Counted from the stretch's first letter, positions 1,790 to 16,958 are shown. The stretch: DNA of 64,000 bases from Candidatus Nomurabacteria bacterium (GCA_020632395.1 JACKFQ010000001.1:226009-290008); one strand, 5' to 3'. Notes: generated by a model not told the origin, from the sequence alone. Program-made: numbers and translations.

Positions 1790-2310
1790 GTTAATTGAGC
1801 CGACTCCCTCGGCATGAATGCCGGGGATTCCGGCTAGGGGTGTCATTTTAGGATTGTGAAGAAATGTACCTTTTTACCACCCCCTCTTCTATCTCACCTA
1901 CTGTTACTGCAAAATAGCCGTCACACCAAAAGCTATCCCCCCATAGAAACTCATCTAGGTCTGGATACTCTTGTTTTAATAATCGACTACTCACACCTTT
2001 AATCTTATGCATTACCGATGATAAACTCTCTCGTGGTTTAATTTGGATTAACATATGAACATGATCAGTCTTGATTGCTAATTCCTCTATCCACCATTTA
2101 TTTAGTTTACAACCTTCATACAATATCTCTGTTATGCGTGTTGATATATCCTTACGAAGGATGTTCTTTCTCCTTTTGGGTATCCAGACTACATGATACC
2201 GAAGTCTGTGTTTTGTGTGAGCTCCGCTCCAATATTTCTTCACATCCTAATTATGACACTTCGCTCAGACGCCCACAACAATGCTACGCCTTGTTGTGGA
2301 TCAGTTCGCT
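1790..2310 (-). mobile_element. IS200-like minimal insertion sequence (tnpA only) with subterminal hairpins; ends approximate
   Basis: Perfect palindromes flank tnpA: ggcat-ga-atgcc (~1812-1823) and ccacaacaa-N9-ttgttgtgg (~2270-2296). No tnpB is present. Confidence 0.55.
1848..2243 (-). CDS. tnpA: IS200/IS605-family Y1 (HUH) transposase TnpA
   Basis: ~131 aa. HVHML HxH motif, YHVVWIPKRR N-terminus, and a C-terminal catalytic Tyr region typical of IS200 TnpA. Confidence 0.85.
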   Translation of the reverse strand: MKKYWSGAHTKHRLRYHVVWIPKRRKNILRKDISTRITEILYEGCKLNKWWIEELAIKTDHVHMLIQIKPRESLSSVMHKIKGVSSRLLKQEYPDLDEFLWGDSFWCDGYFAVTVGEIEEGVVKRYISSQS

Positions 2311-2595
2311 TCATCCCCATTCTTAAAAGACTTGGGGTATTCGCGTCGACTCAATAAATTTGGATTTTGTGGGATAGTGTCTAAACACCCTCTATACGGA
2401 TAAATACTACCAAGAGAGGATAATTCGAGACTTGGGGTAGGTAGTAAAACCGTAATTGAACAAATCTTCAAGTATATCGATGATTTTAAAACCACTTGGA
2501 ATTGGTTGTCTAATCCAACGATGAGGTTTGAGGGATTAGATTAGAAGAGCAATTCCTGTAAATTAGGATTCGCACTACTATATTGTGGACTAGTA

Positions 2596-3780
2596 GTGTA
2601 TAATCAAAACATGAATATAAAAAGAGACATCGAAAGTCAAATAAAAAAAGCTTCTAAAAAGATTGGTGTGATTACAATAGTAGGGCCAAGACAGTCCGGT
2701 AAAACAACAATTGCTAAGGAATTATTTCCAGACCATAAGTACTATAATTTGGAAGACATTCGACTACGAGATAGAATATCACAAGATCCAAAACAATTTC
2801 TAGATAACCATGAATCGGGTATTATCCTTGATGAGGTACAAAAATATCCTGGTTTATTATCATATATTCAGATAAAAATTGATGAAGACTTCATGCCTGC
2901 TCGTTTTATTCTAACAGGATCTGAAAACCTACTTCTCTCAGAGAAAATATCCCAGAGTCTTGCTGGAAGGACATCCATCTTTCAATTACTACCATTAAGT
3001 ATAAATGAATTAATAAACTCAAATTACCTTAAAGAGAATTATCTTGAACAAATTCTTTTTGGATTTTATCCTCGTATTTATTCTCAGAATCTTCAGCCAA
3101 GTGATTTATATCCAGATTATGTGACAACATATATTGAGCGTGACGTAAGGCAAGTCAAAAATATTGGTGACCTAACAAACTTCCAAAGATTCCTTCAACT
3201 ATTAGCCGGAAGGACAGGGCAACTATTAAATCTATCAAGCCTTGCAAGTGATGTAGGGGTTACATACAAAACTATTGAGTCATGGATTTCACTTTTAGAA
3301 GCAACATATATTGCATTCCGATTGCAACCATACTATAAGAACTTTGGAAAAAGGATTATTAAGTCTCCAAAGGTTTACTTTTATGATACTGGGTTACTTT
3401 GCTATTTATTGGGGATTGATAGTGTGAAAGAGTTAAGCACTCATTCAGCTATTGGTGCAATTTATGAGAACTTAATAGTTACAGATTTCAAAAAACAGCT
3501 TTTCAATACACGCTCTAGTTCAAAACTATATTTTTGGAGAGATAGTGAAAAAAACGAAATAGATTTATTGATCAAAAATGCAGATATATTATATCCAATT
3601 GAGATAAAAGCTGGGAGCTCATTTAACAGCGACTACCTCAAGGGGATAAAGGTATGGGATAGTTTACACCAAGAAAAGAGTTTAAGTCATATCGTTTACA
3701 ATGGTGAGAATGATAAGATTTCTAATACAAAACTCATTAATTGGGTTGAGATTAATGAATTTACTGATCTAATTTCCTAA
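2596..3780 (+). CDS. AAA+ ATPase with C-terminal DUF4143 domain (COG1373-like)
   Basis: Walker A GPRQSGKTT near the N-terminus; the C-terminal region has the YFYDTGLL motif typical of DUF4143. Confidence 0.7.
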   Translation: MYNQNMNIKRDIESQIKKASKKIGVITIVGPRQSGKTTIAKELFPDHKYYNLEDIRLRDRISQDPKQFLDNHESGIILDEVQKYPGLLSYIQIKIDEDFMPARFILTGSENLLLSEKISQSLAGRTSIFQLLPLSINELINSNYLKENYLEQILFGFYPRIYSQNLQPSDLYPDYVTTYIERDVRQVKNIGDLTNFQRFLQLLAGRTGQLLNLSSLASDVGVTYKTIESWISLLEATYIAFRLQPYYKNFGKRIIKSPKVYFYDTGLLCYLLGIDSVKELSTHSAIGAIYENLIVTDFKKQLFNTRSSSKLYFWRDSEKNEIDLLIKNADILYPIEIKAGSSFNSDYLKGIKVWDSLHQEKSLSHIVYNGENDKISNTKLINWVEINEFTDLIS

Positions 3781-4002
3781 GGATTTAGATAGTATATGAG
3801 CGATTGCTCTATAGGAAAATCCAAGTTGGGGTGGAAGATTTCAAACTTCTCCAATTTGTTGAAGAGATACTAATACCGCTATTCCAGCAAGTTAAAAAGG
3901 TTCAGGAAGAGATGAATTTGATCATAGCTGAAAATAAGTCCAAGCCTTATGTAAAGCTCGATTATAAGCTCTAACACTTAGAAGGAAGAGAGGACTCCAA
4001 CT

Positions 4003-4317
4003 TTATACAGATCTTCTCTTTGAGCCCGACATATTTTTAACTGTTCCGTGAACTTCTTTTTTACGCATGGCTGCGGCTGCTAATCCCATATCCGACTGAG
4101 GAACTTGCAAGACCTTCTGACTTGAGCGTCTATCTCCTAATCTCTGAGCCGCTTTCTCAAGAAGTTTTGGATTTCCACTTCTCTCAATTTCTGTTGCTCG
4201 AGATCCAGACTTTGTAACAGCATCTAGTCGTCTATTTCGAGATAAGGAGACCTCCTGTTTTCCCTCTTTACCTGCAGCCTTAGACTGGGCTCTTATGTGT
4301 GATTGTGTTTTAGACAT
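4003..4317 (-). CDS. small basic hypothetical protein
   Basis: 104-aa ORF, K/R/S-rich, no recognisable domain. Confidence 0.3.
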   Translation of the reverse strand: MSKTQSHIRAQSKAAGKEGKQEVSLSRNRRLDAVTKSGSRATEIERSGNPKLLEKAAQRLGDRRSSQKVLQVPQSDMGLAAAAMRKKEVHGTVKNMSGSKRRSV

Positions 4318-4456
4318 AAATGTAAATTGAAAAGTTATTAATTATTTTAGCAAACCTCAAATAGGAGTGCTAGTCCCGTTTAGAGTCAGTAGTATTTCTG
4401 TTCAAATACAGCCATTTCTGATATCCTTATAAAAGTAATTTTAGCGAGGAATTACA

Positions 4457-6133
4457 ATGCGAGACCTAGAGACTCCGTCAAAAGACAATCTTAGTAAAAT
4501 ACTAACTGCAATTGATTCTGGATTTTATGTAATTCCAGACTTTCAAAGAGAATTTGAATGGGGACCTTGGGATATACAAGCATTGTTACAATCAATATTT
4601 GCTGATTATTACATTGGTACACTACTTCTTTGGCGATCAACTCCCGAAAACTTCAACAAACTGAATTGTGAGTCTATATACGGATTTAACAAGATCAATA
4701 AAGAGAAACTAATGTATACAGCTCAACACATTGTTTTAGACGGACAACAGAGACTTAGTGCTCTACATTATGCGTTTTTTCCTCCGACAGAGCCATTTCC
4801 AAAAAGAAAAACTCGTTTCTATTTCTTTGTTAAACTTAACAGTATTTTAGAAGACGACTGGGATGAATCAATTGAATACAGAAATGACAATACTTCACGA
4901 CAAAGAACCGCAGAAGAGTTTGTAGGACCCTTAGAAAAGCAATTCGAAGAAGGGTTATTTCCACTATACCTGCTTGGTCAGGGTTTTGAATGGTATAAGT
5001 GGGTTGTACAGTATGGGAATTGGCTAGAGAAACAAGGAGATACCGAAAAAGAAGAGAAAGTACAAAAACTTGAGAAGTTCTTCCAATCATTGCTAAATAG
5101 TTATGATATTAGCTATATCGAACTATCAAAGGACATAGATGTTGCTAAGGTATGCGATATATTTACAAAGATCAACTCATCTGGATTGAAACTTACGATC
5201 TTTGACCTTCTCAACGCATTGTTGAAGCCTCACGACATTGAGCTTAAGAAAAACTGGAGAATTGCTTCTGAGAACTATAACCACAAAGAGCTGGAAAAGA
5301 TGAACATCTACCTTCTTCAGTATATGTCGATCAGACTACAAGGATACTGTTCGCCCAGATATCTTTACTACTTAGTTCCTAATACACAAAGAACAATTAG
5401 AAAAGAAGATGGATCAAAAGAGAAACGAGTAATTATGACAAGCCCAGAAGAATTTACACAATACTGGGAGGAAGCCTTGCGATATACTCAAAAGGCTTTA
5501 GCAAAAATTGAGAATCCTAGGGATTTTGGATCGCTTCAACCAAAGTTTATTCCATATCCAACTATGACGCCTATTCTCGCTGTTTTACTGAAAGAGAAAG
5601 AGTCGCTAGATTCCACAAGACAACAAGCATTTGATAAGAAAATTACACAATGGTATTGGGCTTCTGTACTATCCAACAGTTATTCAAGCAGTGTTGAATC
5701 AACAATGACGAAAGACTACTTAGATCTCAAAAAATGGATAGAAGACGATTCAATGACACCAAATGTGGTTCAAAGAGCCGTTAATACTATTGAAAATCTT
5801 GATCTGGTTAGAGAGAATCGACAGAATACCGCTATTTATAACGCAATATTCAGTCTGTTTGCTAGAAACGAAGCAAGAGACTTCTACACAAATAATCTTC
5901 CAGAGTATTCAGTATTAGAAGATCACCATATTGTTCCAGCGTCTTGGGGTAAGAAAAACGGGATAAAAGACATAAATACGATATTAAACAAAGCACCTAT
6001 TTCAAATGATACAAACAAGAAGATTAGCGACAGACTTCCAAGTGATTACCTCAATGAAATAAAGCGAAATATCGGAAATGACGAGCAATTTTATGATCTG
6101 ATGCGAACACACCTCATCGAGCATCTCATCTAG
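4457..6133 (+). CDS. GmrSD-family type IV restriction endonuclease (N-terminal DUF262 + C-terminal DUF1524 His-Me finger)
   Basis: DUF262 signature FQREFEW plus DGQQR (IVLDGQQRLSAL). The C-terminus has DHHIVPASWGKKNG...N...N, resembling the DUF1524 HNH-like motif. Confidence 0.8.
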   Translation: MRDLETPSKDNLSKILTAIDSGFYVIPDFQREFEWGPWDIQALLQSIFADYYIGTLLLWRSTPENFNKLNCESIYGFNKINKEKLMYTAQHIVLDGQQRLSALHYAFFPPTEPFPKRKTRFYFFVKLNSILEDDWDESIEYRNDNTSRQRTAEEFVGPLEKQFEEGLFPLYLLGQGFEWYKWVVQYGNWLEKQGDTEKEEKVQKLEKFFQSLLNSYDISYIELSKDIDVAKVCDIFTKINSSGLKLTIFDLLNALLKPHDIELKKNWRIASENYNHKELEKMNIYLLQYMSIRLQGYCSPRYLYYLVPNTQRTIRKEDGSKEKRVIMTSPEEFTQYWEEALRYTQKALAKIENPRDFGSLQPKFIPYPTMTPILAVLLKEKESLDSTRQQAFDKKITQWYWASVLSNSYSSSVESTMTKDYLDLKKWIEDDSMTPNVVQRAVNTIENLDLVRENRQNTAIYNAIFSLFARNEARDFYTNNLPEYSVLEDHHIVPASWGKKNGIKDINTILNKAPISNDTNKKISDRLPSDYLNEIKRNIGNDEQFYDLMRTHLIEHLI

Positions 6134-6387
6134 ATTCGGAAAAGCAAGTTTGTATCCTTGATTTATATGATAACCATTTTCTGGAATATCAAACTCTAAT
6201 CTATATTTTTTTAATAAGCTCCCTAAATGTTAGGTGATATGTAATTGCAGTAATCGCGTATTAATAGCCACGATCAACATTCGAGAGCTCTTCTAGCGTA
6301 TTTTTTATTGAGGTATATCTATTAGTACTCCCAAATCGCCTTGATAAATAAATTAGGTTCATTACTTCTTAATTTAAAACTTACTTA

Positions 6388-6768
6388 TTAACTTTCTACA
6401 TCATCCGTTTTATCAATTATTTCTAATATAAATTTGTCAGGAGTAATTTGCATCTCTTGTTCATTCTCTGGCTTGGGCTTTCCAAGTAGTCGATCTACCC
6501 AGTCTATAAGTAATTTGCTTGAACTAGACATTTTTGAGATGTATGTAAAGGCCAGCTTATCATTGATGGTAAATTGATCTTTGTGATGTTCCATATTCTC
6601 TTTAACTTCTTCAAATTCTGAAATGGTCATTCCCATATAATCAGTAATCCTATCCATAAATATTTGACTTTGCCTTTTTCTTTCCCATCCCTTTGATTTT
6701 TGATCGGGAGATGGTTGTTGCTTTGAACTGAATTGTGTTGCTTTACCGTTTTTTACGCCGTTTTGCAT
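6388..6768 (-). CDS. hypothetical protein
   Basis: 126-aa ORF with no recognisable motif. Confidence 0.35.
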   Translation of the reverse strand: MQNGVKNGKATQFSSKQQPSPDQKSKGWERKRQSQIFMDRITDYMGMTISEFEEVKENMEHHKDQFTINDKLAFTYISKMSSSSKLLIDWVDRLLGKPKPENEQEMQITPDKFILEIIDKTDDVES

Positions 6769-6829
6769 ATCATAATTATATTAGATTGAAATTTAGTTAT
6801 CGCGTAGCAATAATGTTACTTGCTATAAT

Positions 6830-7954
6830 ATGGGTATGAGAAACAAAAAACTAATTGACGATATTAACTATCTATTTAAAACACTCCCCAGAAAACATAA
6901 GGATTTGTATGCACTAATCTCAAAGGATGAGTTTATTATGATGACAGATAGAGTTGTAGCTCTTGTTGATAATAAGGACTTCAAACAAAAGGATTTTCCA
7001 ATCGTTTTGCAAATGATTTTCGCAAAGATTCGGGATGCTCATTCGATGGTTGATCGATATCAAGATCCTAAAACTCCTTTCTATTTCGAACATATCAACG
7101 GTACCTATGCCCCAGTCGTAGTAAGTAAGGAGACTAAAAAGCTACTACTTACAAAGCTTAAGTCAATAAATGGTTATAGTATAGAAGAATTTTCTAGACT
7201 AATCGACAAGTATATTATTTATGATAATCCTGAAGCTCAGAAATTGCAGATATCTCGATCGTTAAGTGATTGGAAGCTGATTAATTATGTAACCTCAAAT
7301 AAAAATAAATACATAACTTATGTTTTTGCAGATGGTACGAAGGTAAAGTCCAAGAAACGACTTAAGTCTACTATGCAAACAAGCATCTATTGGACAGAAG
7401 GACTAGAGTTTTTACGAGAAAGACCTAGCTATTTCCTATTATCAAAGGGAAATGCTTTGTATATTAAGTACTCAAGATGTAGGGAAGATCAGGATTATCC
7501 ACTTAAGCAATTCACAAGAGAGATTAGGGCTGCTATAAAAAAGAATACTCCAAGCAAAATAGTTGTCGATTTTAGAAATAATCACGGTGGTAACTCCTCT
7601 CTGTTTGACCAGATCGCTGATGTACTAAAAAGCTATATCGATAAAAACAAACCCAAAGTCTATTGTTTAATCAATAGAAAAGTATTCTCTTCTGGGACTC
7701 TTAATACATATGATGTGAAATACAAGCTTGGTGCTACGGTTGTTGGACAACCTGCTTCTCAGGGGATAAACCATTTCGGTTATACTCACTTTTTTGAGTT
7801 ACCGAATTCGAAAGTTGAAATACGTTACTCCTCTGAGTATTGGAAATTTATTGATGGAAATGATCCTGTAATTAAACCCGATGTGTACATCGAACCTACA
7901 ATTGCTGACTATAAAAACGGTAACGATCCTGTACTCCAGTACTGCCTAGACTAA
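6830..7954 (+). CDS. S41-family (C-terminal processing / tail-specific) peptidase-like protein
   Basis: DFRNNHGGNS (cf. the S41 D-x-R-x-N-x-G-G motif) and a downstream FSSGT serine region. Confidence 0.5.
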   Translation: MGMRNKKLIDDINYLFKTLPRKHKDLYALISKDEFIMMTDRVVALVDNKDFKQKDFPIVLQMIFAKIRDAHSMVDRYQDPKTPFYFEHINGTYAPVVVSKETKKLLLTKLKSINGYSIEEFSRLIDKYIIYDNPEAQKLQISRSLSDWKLINYVTSNKNKYITYVFADGTKVKSKKRLKSTMQTSIYWTEGLEFLRERPSYFLLSKGNALYIKYSRCREDQDYPLKQFTREIRAAIKKNTPSKIVVDFRNNHGGNSSLFDQIADVLKSYIDKNKPKVYCLINRKVFSSGTLNTYDVKYKLGATVVGQPASQGINHFGYTHFFELPNSKVEIRYSSEYWKFIDGNDPVIKPDVYIEPTIADYKNGNDPVLQYCLD

Positions 7955-8442
7955 AGGATTTTAAGACTATCAATCTCATCAATGTTGTGAATTTCAAGCC
8001 CGTACTTCATGCACTCTGTTTTGTAGTATTCGTTGTACATAATCACCCATTCAACCTCTATGTCCTTTATCCAATCAGGGTATTTATCACCGTCATCATA
8101 AAGCCCTCTCGTATTTATCCTGTTTCGAATTCTTTGTGCGTCTTCATCAATTAAGAAAAGATATCTAATATCATGCTTATCAGAATTCCGGAGCTTACTC
8201 ACATATTCTGGTGTAATTGCGATTCCTTCAAGAGCAATATTTTGAAACCCAAACCCTATCTCCAGAAAGGTGTCGAGGCCTCTTTGAGTTGCGATTGCTT
8301 GTTTAGTTTCGTGCTCAAATACTGTCTTTGCATCTTTATTTTTATGGTAAAATTCTACAGCATCAAGTCCGTGACCATAGAATAAATCAGGATTATCTTC
8401 AGGCTTAAGAACTTCTAGCCTTTCATTACAGAGCAAACTCAA
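7951..8442 (-). CDS. hypothetical protein (possibly a truncated kinase-like fragment)
   Basis: 163-aa ORF; resembles the lid/C-terminal half of a P-loop kinase but no P-loop is present. Confidence 0.3.
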   Translation of the reverse strand: MSLLCNERLEVLKPEDNPDLFYGHGLDAVEFYHKNKDAKTVFEHETKQAIATQRGLDTFLEIGFGFQNIALEGIAITPEYVSKLRNSDKHDIRYLFLIDEDAQRIRNRINTRGLYDDGDKYPDWIKDIEVEWVIMYNEYYKTECMKYGLEIHNIDEIDSLKIL

Positions 8443-8481
8443 CTAAGTATCAAAGACATTCTACTCTTTTGATATAATCAT

Positions 8482-9105
8482 TTGATTAAGCTGACATCAT
8501 TACTTATGAAGAGTATTATTTTCGACCTTAATGGAGTATTCATCAAGGGTGAGTATCTTACATCAAGGCTTGAGAAAAAGTACAAGGTTTCCACAGAAGA
8601 ATCCCTTACTGCACTGAAATCTATCATGGATATTGTAAGACAACCAAATGCACCTTCGATATATTCTCTTTGTGAATCATATTTCGAAGAGTGGGGTGTA
8701 GAACTTGATGAAACTGAATTCTTGGATTGGTATTTCTCGGGAGAATCACTAGATGAAGAAATGTATGAGTTTGCACTTTCATTGAAACAACAAGGTTATA
8801 ACATTTATTTTCTCTCAAACAATTTCAGAGAAAGAACAGATTACTACAGAAATAATCTCCCTAAACTGTTTCAGCTACCTAAGAAATCATATTTCAGCTG
8901 GGAAACTGGTTTGGTTAAACCTAATGTCGAAGTGTATAAACATATCTTAAATGAGAATTCACTAGATCCCACTTCAACATACTACATAGATGACTCGGAA
9001 AAGAACCTAGAAGTAGCTGGATCACTTGGTGTGAATACTTTCTTAATGAAAAATGAAACAACTGTTGATGATTTAAGAGAGTTTATAGCTAGTGCTAGCG
9101 TCTAA
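8482..9105 (+). CDS. HAD-superfamily hydrolase-like protein
   Basis: N-terminal IIFDLNGV (HAD motif I variant), YFLSNN motif II region, C-terminal IDDS motif. Confidence 0.45.
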   Translation: MIKLTSLLMKSIIFDLNGVFIKGEYLTSRLEKKYKVSTEESLTALKSIMDIVRQPNAPSIYSLCESYFEEWGVELDETEFLDWYFSGESLDEEMYEFALSLKQQGYNIYFLSNNFRERTDYYRNNLPKLFQLPKKSYFSWETGLVKPNVEVYKHILNENSLDPTSTYYIDDSEKNLEVAGSLGVNTFLMKNETTVDDLREFIASASV

Positions 9106-9232
9106 TCTCCCTCTGAGCTCATAAACACTAACAATAAAGGTAAATTAGGATTCTGGGGTCGCTATGCCTCTATCATACTAAACAGCTTATATGACAAGTT
9201 GGTTGAAGCAAAGAGTATGGTAAAGCCTGAGT

Positions 9233-9979
9233 TTAGTTACTCTTGAGGGAATTTTGATAGATCTCGACCAAAGGCTCTTCCCAATCAAAACAAGATGATA
9301 TTCCAACTAACGACTTGAAAGCTTTTATACTTTTTTCATCAAGTTTGGCATACTCTTGTAAAACACCAACACATTCTGCAATAAATCCGCCTACAGTACC
9401 ATTTGAATCATCAACACCCCCAGAAACAAGCTTCTTATCGAGTCTAATTATTAATTTTACCAGTAAGTCAGCAGTTTGATAGCTTACTGGCAATTTTGAA
9501 ACAATTGTAGATAATCTATTTGTGCCTTCTCGAAGTGAATCTTGATATGCAAACCAGATCCTTGAAGGTCCAGAATATGCTTTAATCAGTCTTACAGCAT
9601 TTGAGATCACTTTTTTGGTTTCCGCAAGTTCTTCTGTAGACAATTCTCCTAGATTCTTACTGCAAGTTGGGTGAGAAATAGTTGTCTTATCTTCTGTTGG
9701 AATTTTCTTGCCTCTCAGGATTGCATAAATAGCCACAGCAACCATATGCTTGCACAGTATGTCCTGTTCACCTAGATAACAATTGCAACGACCTCGATCA
9801 TAAGACTTGGAATGAACTACAACTTTATATGGGTGAGTACCTTGTACTGTAGCAGTATAGGTAATTCCATTGTCGTCAAATTCTTTGATCTTGCCTGATT
9901 CATATAAACCAATTGCTCGTTTATATGTTGGTTCGTCAGTTGCGTATTTAATTTTTTCTAGTGTGTATGCTGGTTTCAT
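9233..9979 (-). CDS. SWIM zinc-finger domain protein
   Basis: CxC-x(n)-CxH arrangement (RCNCYLGEQDILCKHMVAV). Confidence 0.5.
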   Translation of the reverse strand: MKPAYTLEKIKYATDEPTYKRAIGLYESGKIKEFDDNGITYTATVQGTHPYKVVVHSKSYDRGRCNCYLGEQDILCKHMVAVAIYAILRGKKIPTEDKTTISHPTCSKNLGELSTEELAETKKVISNAVRLIKAYSGPSRIWFAYQDSLREGTNRLSTIVSKLPVSYQTADLLVKLIIRLDKKLVSGGVDDSNGTVGGFIAECVGVLQEYAKLDEKSIKAFKSLVGISSCFDWEEPLVEIYQNSLKSN

Positions 9980-9984
9980 TTTGT

Positions 9985-10135
9985 TTCAGTTTTGGAACTA
10001 GAATACCTACTTAGTTCCAAGTTGGAACTAATTTTCTTTCTTAGTCCCAATTTGAGACTAAGGTTGTAACACTGGTGTTACAAAGTGCGACCCTTGTAAC
10101 AAAACGCTCTCTTTTTGTTACATATATGACTTCGT
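9985..10135. promoter_or_regulatory. cluster of palindromes (candidate operators) between the Fic and SWIM genes
   Basis: ggaacta-N10-tagttcc at ~10003-10030. Perfect 8-2-8 palindrome ttgtaacac-tg-gtgttacaa at ~10063-10082. ttgtaacaa and ttgttacat half-site repeats follow. Confidence 0.35.
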
Positions 10136-10147
10136 GAAACAAGACTG

Positions 10148-11227
10148 TTACTCCAGAATTTTAACTAATTTATTGAATCTATATGAGTTTACCTTCGTAG
10201 TATCACTTTTAGATAAAACTTTAACTTCTTCAAGATATTTCAAAATCCTTAAAGCAGTCATACGTTGGATTCCTGTTTCTTTTGTCATATCTGGTGAATT
10301 AAAAATAGGCATTGAGAATAGAAAATCCAAAACCTTGATTGCATTTTTCGGAGTAGGAATAGTTACAATTTCTTCTTTTAATGAATTATAAAGATTAAGC
10401 ACCTCCTCAACTTTCAAGATGTTCTTTTCAGACTGTTTAATTACTGCAACCAAGAAAAATAAGATCCAACTCTCCCAATCATTATCCTTGGTTATTGCTT
10501 TTAATCTTTGGTAATACTCATCACGATTGGTCTCAAAGTATTCACTAAGATAAAGCATAGGTTGTTTTAGAACCTTTTTATAATATAAAAATAATGGCAT
10601 TAATATCCTACCTGTACGACCATTACCGTCCCAGAATGGATGAATGATTTCAAACTGAGCGTGGATTATAGCAAGTTGTACAAGGTAATCCTTCTCATCA
10701 TAATGAATATATCTCTCAAAATCGGCAAAGAGATCTTCTATTTCATTCGCTTCTGGCGGAACATGACTTGCATGATCTAGTCCCAAAGCAGGGTTGCCAA
10801 TATATACTGGACCAGTTCTAAATTCACCTGGAGTTTTGTCACTACCACGGGCATCTTGCATCAGGACTTTATGATTCTCTTTGATGAGTCTAGCTGAGAG
10901 CGGTAACTCATCAAGTTTATCAATCGCCATGTTCATAGCTTTGCGGTAGTTTAAGACTTCTTGAATATCCTCATACTTATCAGTCTTTTTATTGGGGCTT
11001 GCTTCATACTTCAAAACATCTTCAAGAGAGGCTTGTGTCCCCTCAATCTTTGAAGACAATACAGCTTCTTTTGTGGTAAGAGGGGATAGAAGAATCCTTG
11101 CTTTTGGTATGCTTTGCATATAACCATCAAACTTTGCCACAGCTCTATTAGCCTCACCAATATGCTCAAGGAATTTATCCCAATCTAAATCTTTTATTGG
11201 TAATTTGTGTGGTTTGAATGGTTTCAT
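10148..11227 (-). CDS. fic: Fic/Doc-family protein (AMPylator-type) with internal inhibitory motif and C-terminal wHTH
   Basis: Canonical Fic motif HPFWDGNGRTGR; upstream SSKIEGT matches the (S/T)xxxE(G/N) inhibitory helix. Confidence 0.85.
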   Translation of the reverse strand: MKPFKPHKLPIKDLDWDKFLEHIGEANRAVAKFDGYMQSIPKARILLSPLTTKEAVLSSKIEGTQASLEDVLKYEASPNKKTDKYEDIQEVLNYRKAMNMAIDKLDELPLSARLIKENHKVLMQDARGSDKTPGEFRTGPVYIGNPALGLDHASHVPPEANEIEDLFADFERYIHYDEKDYLVQLAIIHAQFEIIHPFWDGNGRTGRILMPLFLYYKKVLKQPMLYLSEYFETNRDEYYQRLKAITKDNDWESWILFFLVAVIKQSEKNILKVEEVLNLYNSLKEEIVTIPTPKNAIKVLDFLFSMPIFNSPDMTKETGIQRMTALRILKYLEEVKVLSKSDTTKVNSYRFNKLVKILE

Positions 11228-11232
11228 TGTTG

Positions 11233-11754
11233 TTAATTCTTAAATAAATTATCTATATCGTTTTTAGTAGAGACTTTTGTTAGCTTCATCCTAGAATTCT
11301 CTATAAAAACTCTCAGTTTGCTAAGATTGAAGTTGTTTGTAACCAATACTTTGCGTTTAAGTGGTTTAATAAACTCAGGATTTTGCTTTAATAAAATCTC
11401 AAATCTAACAAACAAATTTTCATAGGTCGTATATAGAGTTACAAGATATAGAAATGGCAGAAAAAGTAAACTAAGCAAAATTGGCGTCAGTAGAGATAGG
11501 AAGTTATTAATCGTAAACAATGATTCATAATCCGCTATTAAATTTTTACTGACAAAGTAGATCAATAGTAAACCTATGACTCCAACTATGAATGAAAATA
11601 GCTTACGAACTGGTTCATACTCAGATTTCGTTTTCGAGAATGCCTCCATCATGAAAACAAAAGTAATTACTGGAACAAATACTATATCTACCCAAAAGCT
11701 AAAAGTATAAAAACTAAGTATGAATTCAATAAAAATAGAAACTTTTACTGACAC
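11233..11754 (-). CDS. hypothetical membrane protein
   Basis: 173 aa with several hydrophobic TM segments. Confidence 0.4.
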   Translation of the reverse strand: MSVKVSIFIEFILSFYTFSFWVDIVFVPVITFVFMMEAFSKTKSEYEPVRKLFSFIVGVIGLLLIYFVSKNLIADYESLFTINNFLSLLTPILLSLLFLPFLYLVTLYTTYENLFVRFEILLKQNPEFIKPLKRKVLVTNNFNLSKLRVFIENSRMKLTKVSTKNDIDNLFKN

Positions 11755-11755
11755 T

Positions 11756-12278
11756 CTATGGACTCCACTTCGTTACGCCCATAGGTTCTACTCCAACACA
11801 AACTTCGTTTGCCCCTTGTCTTGCTTTTCTTGATACTGTACATATTGTCTAATCTTCTTCTCATCCAACCCCACACTGCTTACAAAGTATCCTATGCTCC
11901 ATGTTGCAGGATTCCTCCTTATATACTCAAACTTTTTTCTTATTTCCTTTGAACTATTCGCCTTTATATCTCCCACAACTTTTGCTATTGCATATTTTGG
12001 AGGAATCACTGCTACCATGTGCACGTGGTCTTTCATTATTTTTATTTCTTCTATACTCACGTCTGGATACCTCTCCGCTATGTATGTTCTTATTACCTCT
12101 TCACAATATTTCTTAACTCCTGTCACCATGATTTTTTGTCTAAATTTCGGTATCCAGACTATATGGTACATCAGACGGTAAGCAGCGTGGGCTTGTGTTC
12201 GTATTTCCATTTCTTAATTCTACCTCAAGACAAGGGATATCTCCATCTACGGACTCCGCTTCGCTCCGCCCGTAGATT
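11756..12278 (-). mobile_element. IS200-like element with matching subterminal hairpins
   Basis: ctatggactccacttcgttacgcccatag (11756-11785) and ctacggactccgcttcgctccgcccgtag (12247-12275) are near-identical, same-orientation hairpins flanking tnpA. Confidence 0.6.
11788..12210 (-). CDS. tnpA: IS200/IS605-family Y1 transposase TnpA (second, divergent copy)
   Basis: YHIVWIPKFR, HVHMV HxH motif, C-terminal Tyr region. Confidence 0.85.
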   Translation of the reverse strand: MEIRTQAHAAYRLMYHIVWIPKFRQKIMVTGVKKYCEEVIRTYIAERYPDVSIEEIKIMKDHVHMVAVIPPKYAIAKVVGDIKANSSKEIRKKFEYIRRNPATWSIGYFVSSVGLDEKKIRQYVQYQEKQDKGQTKFVLE

Positions 12279-12896
12279 TTTGATCGGAAATATTAAATGC
12301 TCTGTATGCGGTTATACTTTAAGTCCAGAAGAACAAAGAGGCAAGAACTACTACAGATGTACACAATACGGAGGAAAGCATGGAGCTCAATATGTAAGTG
12401 AGGAAATTCTTAAGAACCAATTTGCCAAAGCTTTTAAGAATATCCAACTTGATAAAAAGACAGCTGAGAAAGTCCTCAAAGACCTAAGGGATTTAAATGA
12501 AACGAGTTATGGTATCTCAAAAGACCTAATAAAACATCTGATTTCTGAAAGAGAATCAATTAATAATAGAATGCTAAAACTACTCGATGATAAATATGAT
12601 GAAAGTATTACTAATGAATTGTATGAAAAAAAGAACAAACAGTATCAATCTCAATTAGACGAAATAGAAAGAAAATTAACAAATGTACAGAAGGTTGATA
12701 GAGCCTTCTATGTGACCGCAAACCTTATTGTAGAGCTAGCTAAGCATAGTGCAGAGTTGTTTAAACGTTCGGAACCTCATGAAGCTCAACTCTTAATCAA
12801 AACTGTACTTCAGAACGTAACATGGGATGGTAAAAAACTGCACTACGACTACTTAGAACCGTTCAATCTACTCGTAAATTTGGAAGATAGTACAGT
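12279..12896 (+). pseudogene. C-terminal fragment of a large serine recombinase (zinc-ribbon + coiled-coil region); N-terminal catalytic domains absent
   Basis: CSVCGYTLSPEEQRGKNYYRCTQY zinc beta-ribbon followed by a long coiled-coil. The ORF N-terminus is IS200 terminal sequence and the 3' end runs into tRNA-His. Confidence 0.55.
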
Positions 12897-12897
12897 A

Positions 12898-12975
12898 TGG
12901 GGTGGCAGATGGGACTCGAACCCACAACCCTCGGTACCACAAACCGATGCTCTAACCAATTGAGCTACAGCCACC
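12898..12975 (-). tRNA. tRNA-His (anticodon GTG) with encoded G-1 and CCA
   Basis: Cloverleaf folded by hand; anticodon loop TTGTGGT; T-loop GGTTCGAGTCC; extra 5' G pairs with discriminator C. Confidence 0.8.
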
Positions 12976-13311
12976 ATGACTGCATATTATATACTACCCG
13001 GATGTGTTTTCAAACGATTACTTGCAAGATCCTTATGTTCCGTCAAACAGTTGTCCGACTGATCTTATCTTCACTAAGAGAATTCTATTACGCCCCACTT
13101 GCCCTTTTACTCCATAAAAATTCATCCTCTTTCTGCCAGATCCTTATCACAGCAAAACTTGTCACCTAACACAACTGCCAACCTCATACCATTTGCATCA
13201 GTTCAGGAGGTCAACAATGGGTTCGTGCCTAGACCATCTTCACAACAAAACTTCTAGGATGGTTATCCTATAGGAGGCCATCAAATACATGCACCATGCT
13301 CTGATCTATAT

Positions 13312-14361
13312 TTATGGATAATATTCAAAGTCGATCGATAGGGTAGGTTTATCCTCTGATCCACTAAAATCTCCTGAAGTTACCGATATACCTGACCATG
13401 CATCCGATCCGTCATTTCCAACCCAGATCAAAATATCACTACCCGGAGTCCATGTAGGATCATCTATATGAGATTGGATCAAGGCAGAAATATCTGGTGA
13501 TGATATGGGAGTACCCCATCCTCCACTTGGTACAGAGTTCCAGTCGACAACAATTTCATCTAGACCAGATTCTAGCGAATTAAACGATGTAGAATTGGTC
13601 GGCGGAGAGGTGTCATGGTCCGGATATGTCATCAGATCCACATTTACGTTAGAACCACTGACAGTAGTGACCACAAGGTCAAGCGTAGCATTGGTGATCG
13701 TCGCTCCTTGTGGGATATCTAGATTTTGGAAATTTAGGAATAAATGAATTGAATTATTAAATGATGTTCCTAATGTCAATGTAGTATCGGTGCTATTGAA
13801 TGCAGTACCACCGAGTAGGGAAGTGTCGTTAGTTCCGCTACCTACAACTACTGCAATAGTGTCACTGATCAACTCAGGTGGAGTCTCTGTTGGAATTGTG
13901 ATGACCTCTTCTAACTCTGAGTCAGGCGCAGAGATCAATATCCGTTTACTTTGCTGGCCAAACAGGCAAATCCGATATCCCGTATCACCCCCAGAAGTCG
14001 CTGATGGATCACGAGGTATCTCTACGATATACGCCTGATCAGAACCCACCAATACAGCATCGAGATCTATTTGACCATCAAGGATCGTCGGAACATCCGT
14101 TATCACAGTCGTTCCATCTACACAATTCGCAATAGGTGACCCATCTCCTTCTAAGAGTGTATCGATATCATTTCCATCTATCAACCACTGTTCGATACCA
14201 CTATGGATAGCACGAACACCATTCCATCTTGAAGCATTACGAGATTTTGAGAACGCCACACTAGGATTGATCGCGAGTATAGTTGCAGCCGCAAGTATAC
14301 TGATCAGACCCACCGTCACAAGGATCTCGATCAGTGTAAAAGCATCGTATGATCTTTTCAT
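13312..14361 (-). CDS. type IV pilin-like protein (prepilin-type N-terminal cleavage/methylation helix) with large S/T/G/D-rich globular domain
   Basis: N-terminus MKRSYDAFTLIEILVTVGLISILAAATILAI matches class III signal / N-methylation helix. Confidence 0.6.
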   Translation of the reverse strand: MKRSYDAFTLIEILVTVGLISILAAATILAINPSVAFSKSRNASRWNGVRAIHSGIEQWLIDGNDIDTLLEGDGSPIANCVDGTTVITDVPTILDGQIDLDAVLVGSDQAYIVEIPRDPSATSGGDTGYRICLFGQQSKRILISAPDSELEEVITIPTETPPELISDTIAVVVGSGTNDTSLLGGTAFNSTDTTLTLGTSFNNSIHLFLNFQNLDIPQGATITNATLDLVVTTVSGSNVNVDLMTYPDHDTSPPTNSTSFNSLESGLDEIVVDWNSVPSGGWGTPISSPDISALIQSHIDDPTWTPGSDILIWVGNDGSDAWSGISVTSGDFSGSEDKPTLSIDFEYYP

Positions 14362-14930
14362 GGTTCATTATAACTAAATCGTAAAAGAATCCAACCTCGC
14401 ATTGTTTGACATATATTCTATTTAGGGTTCCGCAAAGCGAGACTGAAACCCATAAGAGTTCTCAAATAACAAAGATACCCTGACCTTATAGTCGAAGGAC
14501 TTTTTGACCGTAAGAGCCAAAAACTTATATTTTCGTATATAATCATCATCAAGGTATAGAAAAGAAAATCACATTGAACATAATGACTCTTTTTTCAAAT
14601 TAAGATATCAACATAAACCTTATCAATCATATTAATAGAGGTACCCCAGGCCTTGACAGTCCAGAAACTGAACCAGAAGGAGGTGATGTCCTCCAAGCTA
14701 TCACTCAGATTCTCTATCCTGAATCAACTTTAACTATCGAGACTTATACTCCCCAGGACATTATCGAATTACTTTACACATTTCTGGCAAAGAATAACTC
14801 ATTAGTAGAACCACCAATATCACCCTCTCATGATGCAATTATACTTGCTCAGGTAGTAGCAAAGGAGATTAGAATATATACAGAAACACATGAAAATAAC
14901 GAGGATGATCTAGATGATTCACTTGAAGAG

Positions 14931-15494
14931 ATGATCTCTGAAGCTCTTTTCTTTTGTATTATCATGGAAAGAAATATGTATGGGGGTGAAAGATCAGCTC
15001 TTAATTTCGTTGAACTGTTCCTGAGACACTCAAGCTCGTTTTTAGACATTCATAAGCTGATCAACAGTGCAATGGATCATGACATTTCACTTGGTTGGTG
15101 GATCATGAGCCTGCTTTACAGTACAGAACAAATATTCTCTGTGGGAACTAGCACTTTAAAAAGAAGACCACAAAGTGATTATCATTATCGAAACAAAAAA
15201 AACCTCATAGATCCAATTGTAGAAAATCATATACTGAGAATTTACTATTTTCACACGGTTCCTATACATTGGTTAGATCATCTTCTAGGTGTCCGATTAT
15301 GTGCCTTTACTGATATTGAAGATTTCCATGTTTATAGATTAAGTAACCATCAGACTCTCGATAAACTCAAAAAGCGAATAATCGAGTATGTGACGTTTCT
15401 GACGAGCAATCAACATGAACGAACACTGGAGAGGACAAAAAGTATCTTGAAAATATTAGAGATGTTGCAAGAACACCTTCCCGCTAACTTATAG
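14931..15494 (+). CDS. hypothetical protein. The frame is open for several hundred nt upstream without an ATG, so there may be a non-ATG start or an N-terminal extension
   Basis: ORF only; no motif recognised. Confidence 0.3.
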   Translation: MISEALFFCIIMERNMYGGERSALNFVELFLRHSSSFLDIHKLINSAMDHDISLGWWIMSLLYSTEQIFSVGTSTLKRRPQSDYHYRNKKNLIDPIVENHILRIYYFHTVPIHWLDHLLGVRLCAFTDIEDFHVYRLSNHQTLDKLKKRIIEYVTFLTSNQHERTLERTKSILKILEMLQEHLPANL

Positions 15495-15508
15495 CACTTA
15501 CATATAAG

Positions 15509-16858
15509 TTAGCTGAGTGGGCCATTGGGCATATAAACATCCATGATTGGAATCATACTATATCGTGTACCTTCAAGAATTTTTAGAAAATGATCAACTA
15601 CAAATTTATAAAATGTAATTTTTTCTTCAGGGAATTTTTGGGTTGGGAGAGGACAATTTTTAAGATGTGCTTGTAATGAAGATAGGAATGATACTAAGAA
15701 CTCCTTCGATGGATTGAATGGCACTAAAGAAGTAGTAGGCTCGTTACCTGGGGTTTGTGTGTTTGCTGAGAACCGCAGATCTGCGGTGTTGATACTGGTG
15801 CTATAAGCATTCACAAATACATAAAGTGATTTTATGAGTTTGTCTAGATAACGGATATCGCCAAAGAGAAACATAGAATATATAAGAAATGATTCTCGGG
15901 CTTTTGTCATACGATGGCGATATACTAAAGCATCAATTATATGTCCATCAATTTCAGATAAGAAATATTCACCATCAGTGAAATTTTCCTGCAGGGGTGG
16001 AATTATAGCGACATCTAAATCAAAACGCATTGCATTTTCGATGAGTTCAGTTTTTTGCATATCGTTCAACCTATCATTGTTTGTAACCAGGAATGTTCCC
16101 AAAAATCTGTTCTGTAACGAAATCATAAGATCCATACTTAACGGTATGGAGCTTAATTGATATAACTGAAATCCATCTACTGGCTTGATACATTCCAGTG
16201 AATTCATCCATACATTCCAATAGCTACCATTTTTCTGACCATCAGGGGTAAACATGCGACTAAATGCTTCCATACCCTCTGTTTCTACTGCATATAGATA
16301 ACCAACAGCAGGATCTATCTTTACCAACTCATCAAACAGAATTAAACTAACAGGATATCCCAAGCCCTCCATATTTGCTTGAAAACTCTTCATTAAAGTA
16401 AATAAGCAAGAAGGAGTTTCATCTGTTGATGTGTATCTACTCACAGCCGCTTCTAGAATATTGCATATTATGAAATTTGTTAGCGTAATGCTCTGTACGA
16501 TAAGTTCATGAGCAGTGTATGGCCAAACAGATTCATTACTTCTTGCTAATCGGTGTGCAAGATTCATGATTTCTTGAATAGACAATTCTTCCTGTGTTAC
16601 CTCATAGACTTTTTCTTTGGGAATGCGAAAATTATCACTATCAGAATTCCAGATAGCTGTTTCTAGAGGTGTCTTTTCAGTGACTTCAGAGAACCTATCA
16701 ATATCCAGAACAGCTGCCAAGATATGTTCTGGGATCAGTACTGAGAACCCCATATTTGGGGATTGTGCTAATTCTGCTGCTCTAGCTTTCCCAAGGAGTG
16801 TTTTCTGGTTCACACGGATCTCGTGACTGTCATATCCCACACCTACCTGATTATGCAT
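15509..16858 (-). CDS. hypothetical protein (449 aa, no recognisable domain)
   Basis: Long uninterrupted ORF whose codon usage looks consistent with its neighbours. Confidence 0.45.
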   Translation of the reverse strand: MHNQVGVGYDSHEIRVNQKTLLGKARAAELAQSPNMGFSVLIPEHILAAVLDIDRFSEVTEKTPLETAIWNSDSDNFRIPKEKVYEVTQEELSIQEIMNLAHRLARSNESVWPYTAHELIVQSITLTNFIICNILEAAVSRYTSTDETPSCLFTLMKSFQANMEGLGYPVSLILFDELVKIDPAVGYLYAVETEGMEAFSRMFTPDGQKNGSYWNVWMNSLECIKPVDGFQLYQLSSIPLSMDLMISLQNRFLGTFLVTNNDRLNDMQKTELIENAMRFDLDVAIIPPLQENFTDGEYFLSEIDGHIIDALVYRHRMTKARESFLIYSMFLFGDIRYLDKLIKSLYVFVNAYSTSINTADLRFSANTQTPGNEPTTSLVPFNPSKEFLVSFLSSLQAHLKNCPLPTQKFPEEKITFYKFVVDHFLKILEGTRYSMIPIMDVYMPNGPLS

Positions 16859-16958
16859 AACCTATAGTATTTTAATTTTAGACTCAATTTTCTATACTAC
16901 TACTAGACCCAAACTTTTATCTAATATACAATTCATAACGATATAATGATCATTCTCT

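Follow-up and report, generated by a model that had tools for sequence, protein, structure and literature searches.

Genomic islands placed at tRNA genes by tyrosine integrases typically carry a distal direct repeat of the tRNA 3' end, 15-50 bp or more in length. Arrays of cis-mobilisable elements (CIMEs) of the ICESt1 type in Streptococcus thermophilus also use tyrosine integrases and long direct repeats. In SSV1-type archaeal integrases, attP lies inside the int gene and integration splits the tyrosine integrase gene in two. The locus described here lies in a stretch of 64,000 nucleotides from a genome recorded as Candidatus Nomurabacteria bacterium (GCA_020632395.1, JACKFQ010000001.1:226009-290008), hereafter the window; all coordinates are those of the whole window, and the island under study occupies ~10.5 kb beside its tRNA-His gene. 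The end of the island that touches the tRNA holds the remnant of a large serine recombinase (LSR), designated LSR1. With a probability of roughly 0.8, positions 2433-12903 preserve what is left, now immobile, of one or more integrative elements that entered the 3' end of tRNA-His by means of LSRs.

The locus shares traits with several described systems. Like tyrosine-type defence islands at tRNA genes, it has strain-variable defence cargo beside the tRNA 3' end, low GC content and decay associated with insertion sequences (IS), but it contains no tyrosine integrase and no repeat of the last 25 nt of the tRNA (up to three mismatches allowed). As in SSV1-type integrases, the coding sequence of the integrase contains the attachment core, and the gene is altered by integration; here, in contrast, integration replaces only the last ~20 codons of a serine recombinase and leaves the gene in one piece. 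The LSRs of phiC31, Bxb1, A118/LI, SPbeta and SCCmec (Ccr) combine a Resolvase domain, a Recombinase domain and a zinc ribbon with coiled coil, as do the intact relatives of LSR1, and large serine integrases resemble the present system in having a very short common core and no long repeats. The locus differs from them in its target, the tRNA 3' end being a choice typical of tyrosine integrases, in the position of the core inside the recombinase open reading frame (ORF), so that integration swaps the C-terminal tail, and in a window copy that lacks the catalytic half. As an object, this is an ordinary decayed island of a known kind; unusual are the pairing of recombinase and target and the attachment core inside the recombinase ORF. 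Also above the ordinary are a site that is resolved to the base pair and still in use, and the stacking of defence systems in a 1-Mb genome of the Candidate Phyla Radiation (CPR).

In the literature consulted, the usual targets of tyrosine integrases are tRNA genes, and serine integrases insert elsewhere (PMC10654092). In mycobacteria, tyrosine-integrase systems (16 of 23) account for the reported attB sites that overlap tRNA or tmRNA genes; the phage-inducible chromosomal island with a serine integrase that is shown in the same paper does not integrate at a tRNA gene (PMC10654092). A literature search for work on serine-recombinase elements in Patescibacteria found none, and tRNA-targeting LSRs may be described elsewhere.

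Occupied and empty forms of the tRNA-His site

The target gene, tRNA-His(GTG), lies on the minus strand at 12898-12974, or to 12975 when G-1 is included (ARAGORN; Rfam tRNA model, 64.9 bits), and it encodes both G-1 (12975) and the CCA end (12898-12900). A pilin-like protein encoded immediately to the right of the tRNA led to assemblies of the same species. On the tRNA side, one of these assemblies, JACKFP010000001.1 (1.09 Mb), is 99.97% identical to the window over 11.5 kb, which extend from 24361 to the tRNA, where the two diverge. On the island side it is 99.99% identical to window positions 2280-12903 over 10.6 kb, and the whole island is present. JACKFP010000001.1 thus equals the window plus ~40 kb between tRNA-His and the LSR1 remnant (~704.6-744.9 kb). 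This insert was seen at both ends, in comparison loci L039 (11407-21050) and L048 (10625-20699), the middle 20 kb lying outside them. By cluster membership, the LSR1 fragment and the gene of a major facilitator superfamily (MFS) protein both occur in JACKFP010000001.1, 13 protein accessions apart; the 395-aa form of the MFS protein had no database match, and the databases hold calls of 396, 469 and 476 aa.

The 40-kb insert starts with an intact 508-aa recombinase, LSR2, that reads into the antisense strand of tRNA-His and is ~28% identical to LSR1 in its N-terminal part. On the LSR2 side, the element also encodes a 1078-aa surface protein, a small protein that may be pilin-like, and an ImmA-like peptidase accompanied by an HTH repressor; its far end carries BrxL, PglZ, RhuM-family and HATPase_c-domain genes of a BREX-type system. 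The window is the empty site for this element, whose insertion took place exactly at TGGGGT, 12898-12903 on the plus strand. The crossover region follows from a three-way comparison: attB in the window reads ...AGTACAGTA-TGGGGT-GGCAGATGGG..., attL in JACKFP010000001.1 reads ...AGTACAGTA-TGGGGT-AGGAGAAGAAACCC..., and attR reads ...AAGTACATC-TGGGGT-GGCAGATGGG..., with TGGGGT as the sole stretch common to all three. Sites resolved to the base pair are therefore available for the uncharacterised LSR2, and its attP follows from them. An occupied and an empty site around a short shared core were found in this way for the LSR2 element and not for the island of the window.

The core is the complement of tRNA-His bases 71-76 (ACCCCA) and codes for W483-G484 of LSR1. 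At LSR1-family loci L003, L005, L010, L011 and L030, homology to the window stops at 12903. So small a core in the absence of a long repeat is the signature of a serine recombinase. The preliminary description of this DNA, made from the sequence alone, proposed a search for a direct repeat of the tRNA 3' end as attR; no second match to the 25-nt tRNA-His 3' end was found with up to three mismatches allowed. Because serine recombinases leave only a short core, no long tRNA repeat is expected, and such a test suits tyrosine integrases. Island finders that seek direct repeats of tRNA ends will miss serine-recombinase islands at tRNA genes.

In JACKFP010000001.1, as in CIME arrays that grow by accretion and mobilisation, a recombinase-less element flanked by attachment sites stands in tandem with a complete one at the same target, and new elements enter at the regenerated site. 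Unlike CIME arrays, the locus has serine enzymes and a 6-bp core, and mobilisation in cis is putative here.

The same comparison bears on taxonomy. The assemblies L038 and L050 match L039, L048 and L049 at 99.97-99.99% identity across more than 10 kb, and of the records concerned one is labelled Candidatus Dojkabacteria and two are labelled Candidatus Nomurabacteria; at least one of these taxonomic labels is wrong.

The tRNA itself has a mismatch in the acceptor stem, U6-U67, in the window and in L002 and L006. The adjacent pair 5:68 covaries, being C-G in the window and A-U in L002 and L006. The mismatch may be conserved in the tRNA-His of this lineage; the other tRNA-His loci (L012-L037) were chosen by a 3'-end pattern that fixes U67.

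The remnant of LSR1

The LSR1 remnant (12292-12963, plus strand) comprises residues 282-504, which cover the zinc ribbon, the coiled coil and the C-terminal region (Pfam Zn_ribbon_recom, E=1.2e-6); a coiled-coil-like stretch follows the zinc ribbon in the window translation. The product of 12292-12903 shares 98% protein identity with residues 282-484 of a complete 504-aa LSR in JAFGMG010000001.1 (L014), and the remnant is 92% identical in nucleotides to L001. The ORF runs straight into the antisense strand of tRNA-His and ends in ...STVWGGRWDSNPQPSVPQTDALTN / ...NLEDSTVWGGRWDSNPQPSVPQTDALTN before the stop; its last 20 residues (485-504), which follow W483-G484, are coded entirely by tRNA-His antisense. 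The Zn_ribbon_recom match and the frame that enters the tRNA bear out the reading of the preliminary description, in which a C-terminal zinc-ribbon/coiled-coil part of an LSR abuts the tRNA-His 3' end.

The 504-aa protein of L014 has a Resolvase domain (E=9e-22), a Recombinase domain (residues 177-262) and a zinc ribbon, and likewise ends in tRNA-His antisense. Both the Recombinase domain and the Resolvase catalytic domain with its serine nucleophile are missing from the window copy, and six-frame translation left of the nearby IS200b shows no trace of residues 1-281. The window LSR1 is a pseudogene fragment and not a functional LSR. At the DNA level, the window aligns with the intact LSR gene from 12292 onwards, immediately past the IS200b hairpin. 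The proposal that IS activity truncated the integrase therefore stands as far as the position of the cut is concerned, which coincides exactly with an IS200-type end; insertion alone is insufficient, as the N-terminal 281 codons have left no trace in any frame, and sequence beside the IS must have been deleted. The deletion would most simply have arisen by recombination between two IS copies. A 98%-identical intact relative of the degraded enzyme is available in L014, and enzymes of this type are a starting point for tools of genome engineering.

A protein search with the LSR1 fragment returned short relatives only, several of which likewise run into a tRNA antisense. Intact versions were found through the contigs of relatives and through a tRNA-His pattern scan of species-representative genomes; the lineage is Candidatus Dojkabacteria (CPR/Patescibacteria). 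Identity to phage LSRs is at most 31%, the PDB gave no match by sequence, and the tRNA-His pattern had no match in viral contigs.

A related remnant may be present at L006-L009 (~2216-2776; P0016), where an unrelated 186-aa membrane-like protein ends ...RESATWGGRWDLNP and its last codons before the tRNA resemble the P arm of the LSR1 family. This tail is probably the last small trace of a recombinase gene that has been lost, now joined to another ORF.

Composition and distribution of the island

The island differs in composition from its surroundings. The GC content is 34.6% at 2439-11754 and 40.4% at 12976-64000 (Mann-Whitney p=1.2e-6, 1-kb windows), which answers the comparison suggested in the preliminary description in favour of a foreign origin, and it is low evenly across the whole length of the block. 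None of 12 block ORFs (1848-12210) stops at TGA (nine TAA, three TAG), as against 16 of 40 elsewhere (Fisher p=0.006). The absence of TGA stops could reflect lower GC alone, or past hosts or elements that avoid TGA.

The block is present in all contigs of the species that were found. The AAA ATPase gene near its left end has the same neighbours in 23 of 23 same-species contigs; since all of them carry the block, the island is fixed in the species. With no same-species contig free of the island, its left border had to be deduced by other means. The preliminary description had raised the prospect of an empty tRNA-His site in related genomes, and no such site for the island exists among these contigs. 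It had also named, as an observation that would speak against integration, orthologous genomes with the same genes at the same locus and no repeat of the tRNA 3' end; the same-species genomes are of this kind, and the observation does not discriminate, as it shows fixation only.

Presence in every same-species contig recovered, together with the lack of a long tRNA repeat at the borders, is what would be expected if only the recombinase remnant and the IS elements were foreign and the genes from AAA to Fic were ordinary chromosomal genes downstream of tRNA-His. This explanation is improbable, given a GC content 5.8 points below the rest of the window, matches of four of the ten block proteins to defence families, and an attachment-like junction with a P'-type arm at 2433 (see below). 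Comparison with the tRNA-His loci of 26 further species representatives also gave no homologue of the block proteins. Island DNA found no match in phage and plasmid collections.

Code 25 was considered for the host and dropped. It was prompted by the 92%-identical LSR1 gene of L001 (Logan SRR17187268 contig), which is in one frame throughout except for a TGA at 2504-2506, where the window and L014 have GGA (Gly). The TGA stops outside the island, together with the overlapping ATGA gene junctions present in the window, indicate that the host uses code 11. The in-frame TGA of L001 reflects a nonsense mutation or an error of assembly and does not speak for an alternative code in the host of the window. 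When TGA is read as sense, the LSR gene of L002 is still split across frames, with no continuous frame.

The left border

Candidates for the left border were the plus-strand TGGGGT hexamers of the window. The hexamer at 2433-2438 has the same orientation as the one at 12898-12903 and is followed by an attP-type (P') half-site and ~110 nt of homology to the far end of the LSR2 element (2439-2545, plus strand). The local alignment of 2433-2545 with the distal end of the 40-kb element scores 39, against a null of 18.9 +/- 2.5. In four P'-type arms (JACKFP attL, the attP-like contigs L003 and L004, and window 2433), a YYGAAY motif lies at +18 from the core; in all tRNA arms its position is +13, where it is the T-loop sequence TCGAAC or TTGAAC. 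The LI integrase of Listeria likewise has the motif for its zinc-ribbon domain 5 bp further out in attP than in attB (PMC3783163), and the difference between +18 and +13 corresponds to this described shift, the hexamer here lying further out in attP-type than in attB-type arms by the same 5 bp. Left-hand arms lack an equally clear recognition motif. Judged by these alignments, the left junction (attL) is probably 2433-2438, which would make the island 2433-12903, or 10.5 kb, and would replace the border at 1790 given in the preliminary description. The ancestral empty-site junction is predicted to have read ...TTCGAGACT-TGGGGT-GGCAGATGGG.

A 13-nt copy of the tRNA-His 3' end, TGGGGTGGAAGAT, occurs at 3827-3839 (plus strand) with one mismatch to the window tRNA; it is identical to the tRNA-His 3' end of L002 and L006. 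Such a copy, correctly oriented and with an estimated chance expectation of ~0.015, could be taken as the distal repeat of a conventional tyrosine-integrase island that spans 3827-12897. This is very unlikely: the phage-integrase (tyrosine recombinase) family has no match in any ORF of 1-17 kb and the sole recombinase is a serine enzyme; the repeat is short and imperfect, and no hexamer stands at an attachment-type position near it. In addition, an inverted-repeat test of the symmetry at 3833 was at chance level, 27% of random positions scoring as high. The copy may be the relic of an internal junction, a possibility that failed the same tests of inverted repeat and hexamer position. A search of the window for an inverted-repeat partner of the LSR1 P arm, made to locate attL, gave matches at chance level.

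An 11-nt direct repeat, GACTTGGGGTA, stands beside the left end of IS200a in two copies 100 bp apart (2328-2339 and 2428-2439), each of which holds the core hexamer. The copy at 2328-2339 could be a still older junction relic or could be tied to the IS insertion.

History of the locus

The favoured explanation is that 2433-12903 was built by LSR-mediated integration at tRNA-His, and a plausible mechanism can be set out. The LSR gene would lie at the tRNA-proximal end of its own element, with its last ~25 bp serving as the P arm of attP. Strand exchange would occur inside TGGGGT, and the element would supply the last few bases of the tRNA, which would stay intact, so that the C-terminal tail of the LSR would then be coded by tRNA antisense. 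As the tRNA would be regenerated, the site would be reusable; newcomers would insert beside the tRNA and push older elements outward in a process of tandem accretion.

Applied to the window, the mechanism suggests a sequence of events. An element with an LSR2-type distal end would have inserted first and left the junction at 2433, and an LSR1 element would then have inserted at tRNA-His. IS200b would subsequently have entered the LSR1 gene, and an IS-associated deletion would have removed codons 1-281 together with whatever lay between. The outcome would be a recombinase-less island with SoFic, GmrSD, the PDC-S01 ATPase and the SWIM protein. The island cannot move by itself. Flanked by attachment-like sites, it could in principle be mobilised in cis by a related LSR such as LSR2. 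The claim of an integrated, now immobile element at tRNA-His is upheld by the LSR remnant on the tRNA, the crossover core and the low GC content; the element is probably not a single one, as had been proposed, but a composite of at least two successive insertions.

The composite origin has to be weighed against a single 10.5-kb LSR1 element, of which 2439-12903 would all be cargo, the LSR2-like end reflecting shared attachment needs and a mosaic backbone and the IS cut coming later. A single element fits the presence of only one clear junction on the left (2433) and one on the right (12898), as well as the evenly low GC content, and since the P arms of LSR1 and LSR2 both read AGTACA..TGGGGT beside the core, the sites of the two enzymes could be similar. 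The loss of LSR1 codons 1-281 left of the IS shows that sequence is missing there, so the adjoining block need not have belonged to LSR1. The intact LSR1 elements (L014 and L001) have as neighbours a 316-aa protein and type III Mod/Res genes (restriction-modification) and none of the window cargo. The homology to the LSR2 end extends over ~110 nt, far longer than a half-site of ~25 bp. A single element is accordingly a possible but doubtful alternative; the different cargo of LSR1 elements and the resemblance of the left arm to the LSR2 element point rather to a composite origin with internal deletion.

Several observations weigh against the integrative origin of 2433-12903 or against its proposed limits. 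The insertion of the island block itself is not directly observed, since it is present in all 23 contigs, and no island-free genome of the species was found among those contigs carrying the AAA gene. The low GC content could in part reflect gene content. The different cargo of intact LSR1 elements means that the window cargo cannot be tied to LSR1, and no free (attP) form of LSR1 was recovered in scans of IMG/VR and JGI metagenomes with LSR1. Support for the left junction comes from one other element, which is ~65% identical over ~110 nt; the host-side (left) arm of 2433 does not show the hexamer at attB-type spacing, and a border at 2433 leaves the second GACTTGGGGTA at 2328-2339 unaccounted for.

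Insertion sequences at the island ends

Two tnpA-only elements of the IS200/IS605 type lie at or near the ends of the block, both on the minus strand. IS200a (1780-2330, ends approximate; tnpA 1848-2243) matches Pfam Y1_Tnp with E=2e-39 and has hairpins near 2274-2300; many metagenome contigs break at ~2329, as expected of a repeated element. It probably lies just outside the island, whose border is placed at 2433. IS200b (11755-12291; tnpA 11788-12210) is IS200-like, matches Y1_Tnp with E=2.4e-29 and has subterminal hairpins, read from the sequence, at ~11757-11785 and ~12245-12280. A Y1 (HUH) transposase and subterminal hairpins, the features that define IS200/IS605 elements, which lack terminal inverted repeats, were found for both. 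The two transposases are 31% identical to each other; the two copies had been called unrelated, and they are indeed different elements, although they belong to the same family.

Two Y1_Tnp genes in the same orientation that flank nearly the whole block raise the question of a composite transposon, in which the IS200 copies at 1848-2243 and 11788-12210 would have moved the block as a unit. Elements of the IS200/IS605 family move as single strands and have asymmetric hairpin ends, and to our knowledge they do not form composite transposons. With transposases only 31% identical, the ends are not cognate, and the right-hand copy lies within a recombinase gene that is joined to the tRNA at its 3' end. 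A composite transposon is extremely unlikely.

Cargo of the island

The block is a candidate anti-phage defence island, judged by family matches: four of its ten proteins match defence families in PADLOC. At the left end, a protein of the AAA_14/DUF4143 ATPase type (2596-3780 or 2611-3780, plus strand; DUF4143 E=7e-51, AAA_14 E=4e-27) belongs to the candidate defence family PDC-S01 (E=1.3e-98). A candidate type IV restriction enzyme of the GmrSD type, with a DUF262 N-terminal domain, is encoded at 4457-6133 on the plus strand (GmrSD_N E=1.5e-30; HEC-05 E=1.8e-24), and its translation has a C-terminal ...EDHHIVP... motif. The SWIM zinc-finger protein (9233-9979, minus strand; Pfam SWIM E=5.5e-4) matches PDC-S62 partially, over residues 6-92 (E=6.7e-16). 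The Fic protein (10148-11227, minus strand; Pfam Fic_N and Fic) is of the SoFic type, matching the PADLOC profile over its full length (E=3.4e-118); it scores 196 bits against the NCBIfam SoFic model, below the cut-off of 550.

The remaining genes are less readily classified. An S41-like peptidase lies at 6830-7954 (plus strand; Pfam Peptidase_S41 E=1.8e-9) and a HAD-IA family hydrolase at 8482-9105 (plus strand; Pfam Hydrolase/HAD_2; NCBIfam TIGR01509, 41.6 bits, above cut-off). Minus-strand ORFs without a family match encode a 104-aa basic protein (4003-4317), a 126-aa protein (6388-6768), a 163-aa protein that is not a HAD protein (7951-8442) and a 173-aa membrane-like product (11233-11754). 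The start of the last abuts the end of IS200b, and this ORF may be truncated at its start by the IS end. No recombination directionality factor turned up among the island ORFs in profile scans, such factors being small, diverse and without a universal profile. The gene content of the ~11-kb accessory block left of tRNA-His given in the preliminary description (Fic, SWIM, HAD, S41-like, GmrSD and AAA/DUF4143) is confirmed by Pfam, and its defence and toxin-like character agrees with the PADLOC matches; of the several HAD hydrolases listed, a single one was found, the ORF at 7951-8442 having no family match.

In some sludge metagenome contigs (L053 and L054, 2129-3733, corresponding to window 4457-6133), the GmrSD protein is called at 534 aa, as against 558 aa in the window, which suggests a truncated allele in part of the population.

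A recurrent target in the lineage

The use of tRNA-His by serine recombinases extends beyond the window. Among tRNA-His loci of this type in species representatives, five full-length LSRs abut the tRNA; three or more divergent lineages are represented, and these read the core in different frames. Further loci include several with C-terminal LSR remnants and ~10 without any. In Dojkabacteria, tRNA-His is a lineage-wide landing site for serine recombinases.

A broader pattern can be proposed only tentatively, and we think it rather less probable than not: in Dojkabacteria, and perhaps in other ultra-small CPR bacteria, the tRNA-His 3' end may be a dedicated, reusable pad for unrelated LSR lineages that hold the attachment core in their own genes, at which the recombinase tail is swapped between a P'-encoded and a tRNA-antisense form, defence systems are stacked and recombinase-less units are carried along in cis. 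If this is correct, the swap of the C-terminal tail could bias the direction of the reaction, favouring integration over excision. Repeated use of the pad would stack SoFic, GmrSD, BREX and type III restriction-modification systems, and would account for ~4-5% of one 1.09-Mb chromosome. Members of the CPR/Patescibacteria have tiny genomes in which CRISPR is rare (PMC6509639). The locus offers a concrete route by which they may gain phage defence, with serine-recombinase elements repeatedly hitting one tRNA end and building an array.

At L030 (JAGPKI010000068.1), 28 nt of the tRNA-His 3' end recur as a second, partial copy at a distance of 7.6 kb from the actual tRNA gene (57-127; ~7743-7772), and a C-terminal fragment of the LSR1 family lies 1.4 kb from tRNA-His. 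The arrangement resembles a further tandem array whose distal arm is long and tRNA-like.

On the other side of the tRNA, ~4 kb separate tRNA-His from the deformylase gene (def) in the window (12976-16958), and a 349-aa type IV pilin-like protein and two unknown ORFs are encoded between them. In two further genomes of the group (L029 and L037), tRNA-His is only ~0.5-0.7 kb from def, and the upstream side of tRNA-His may also have gained genes.

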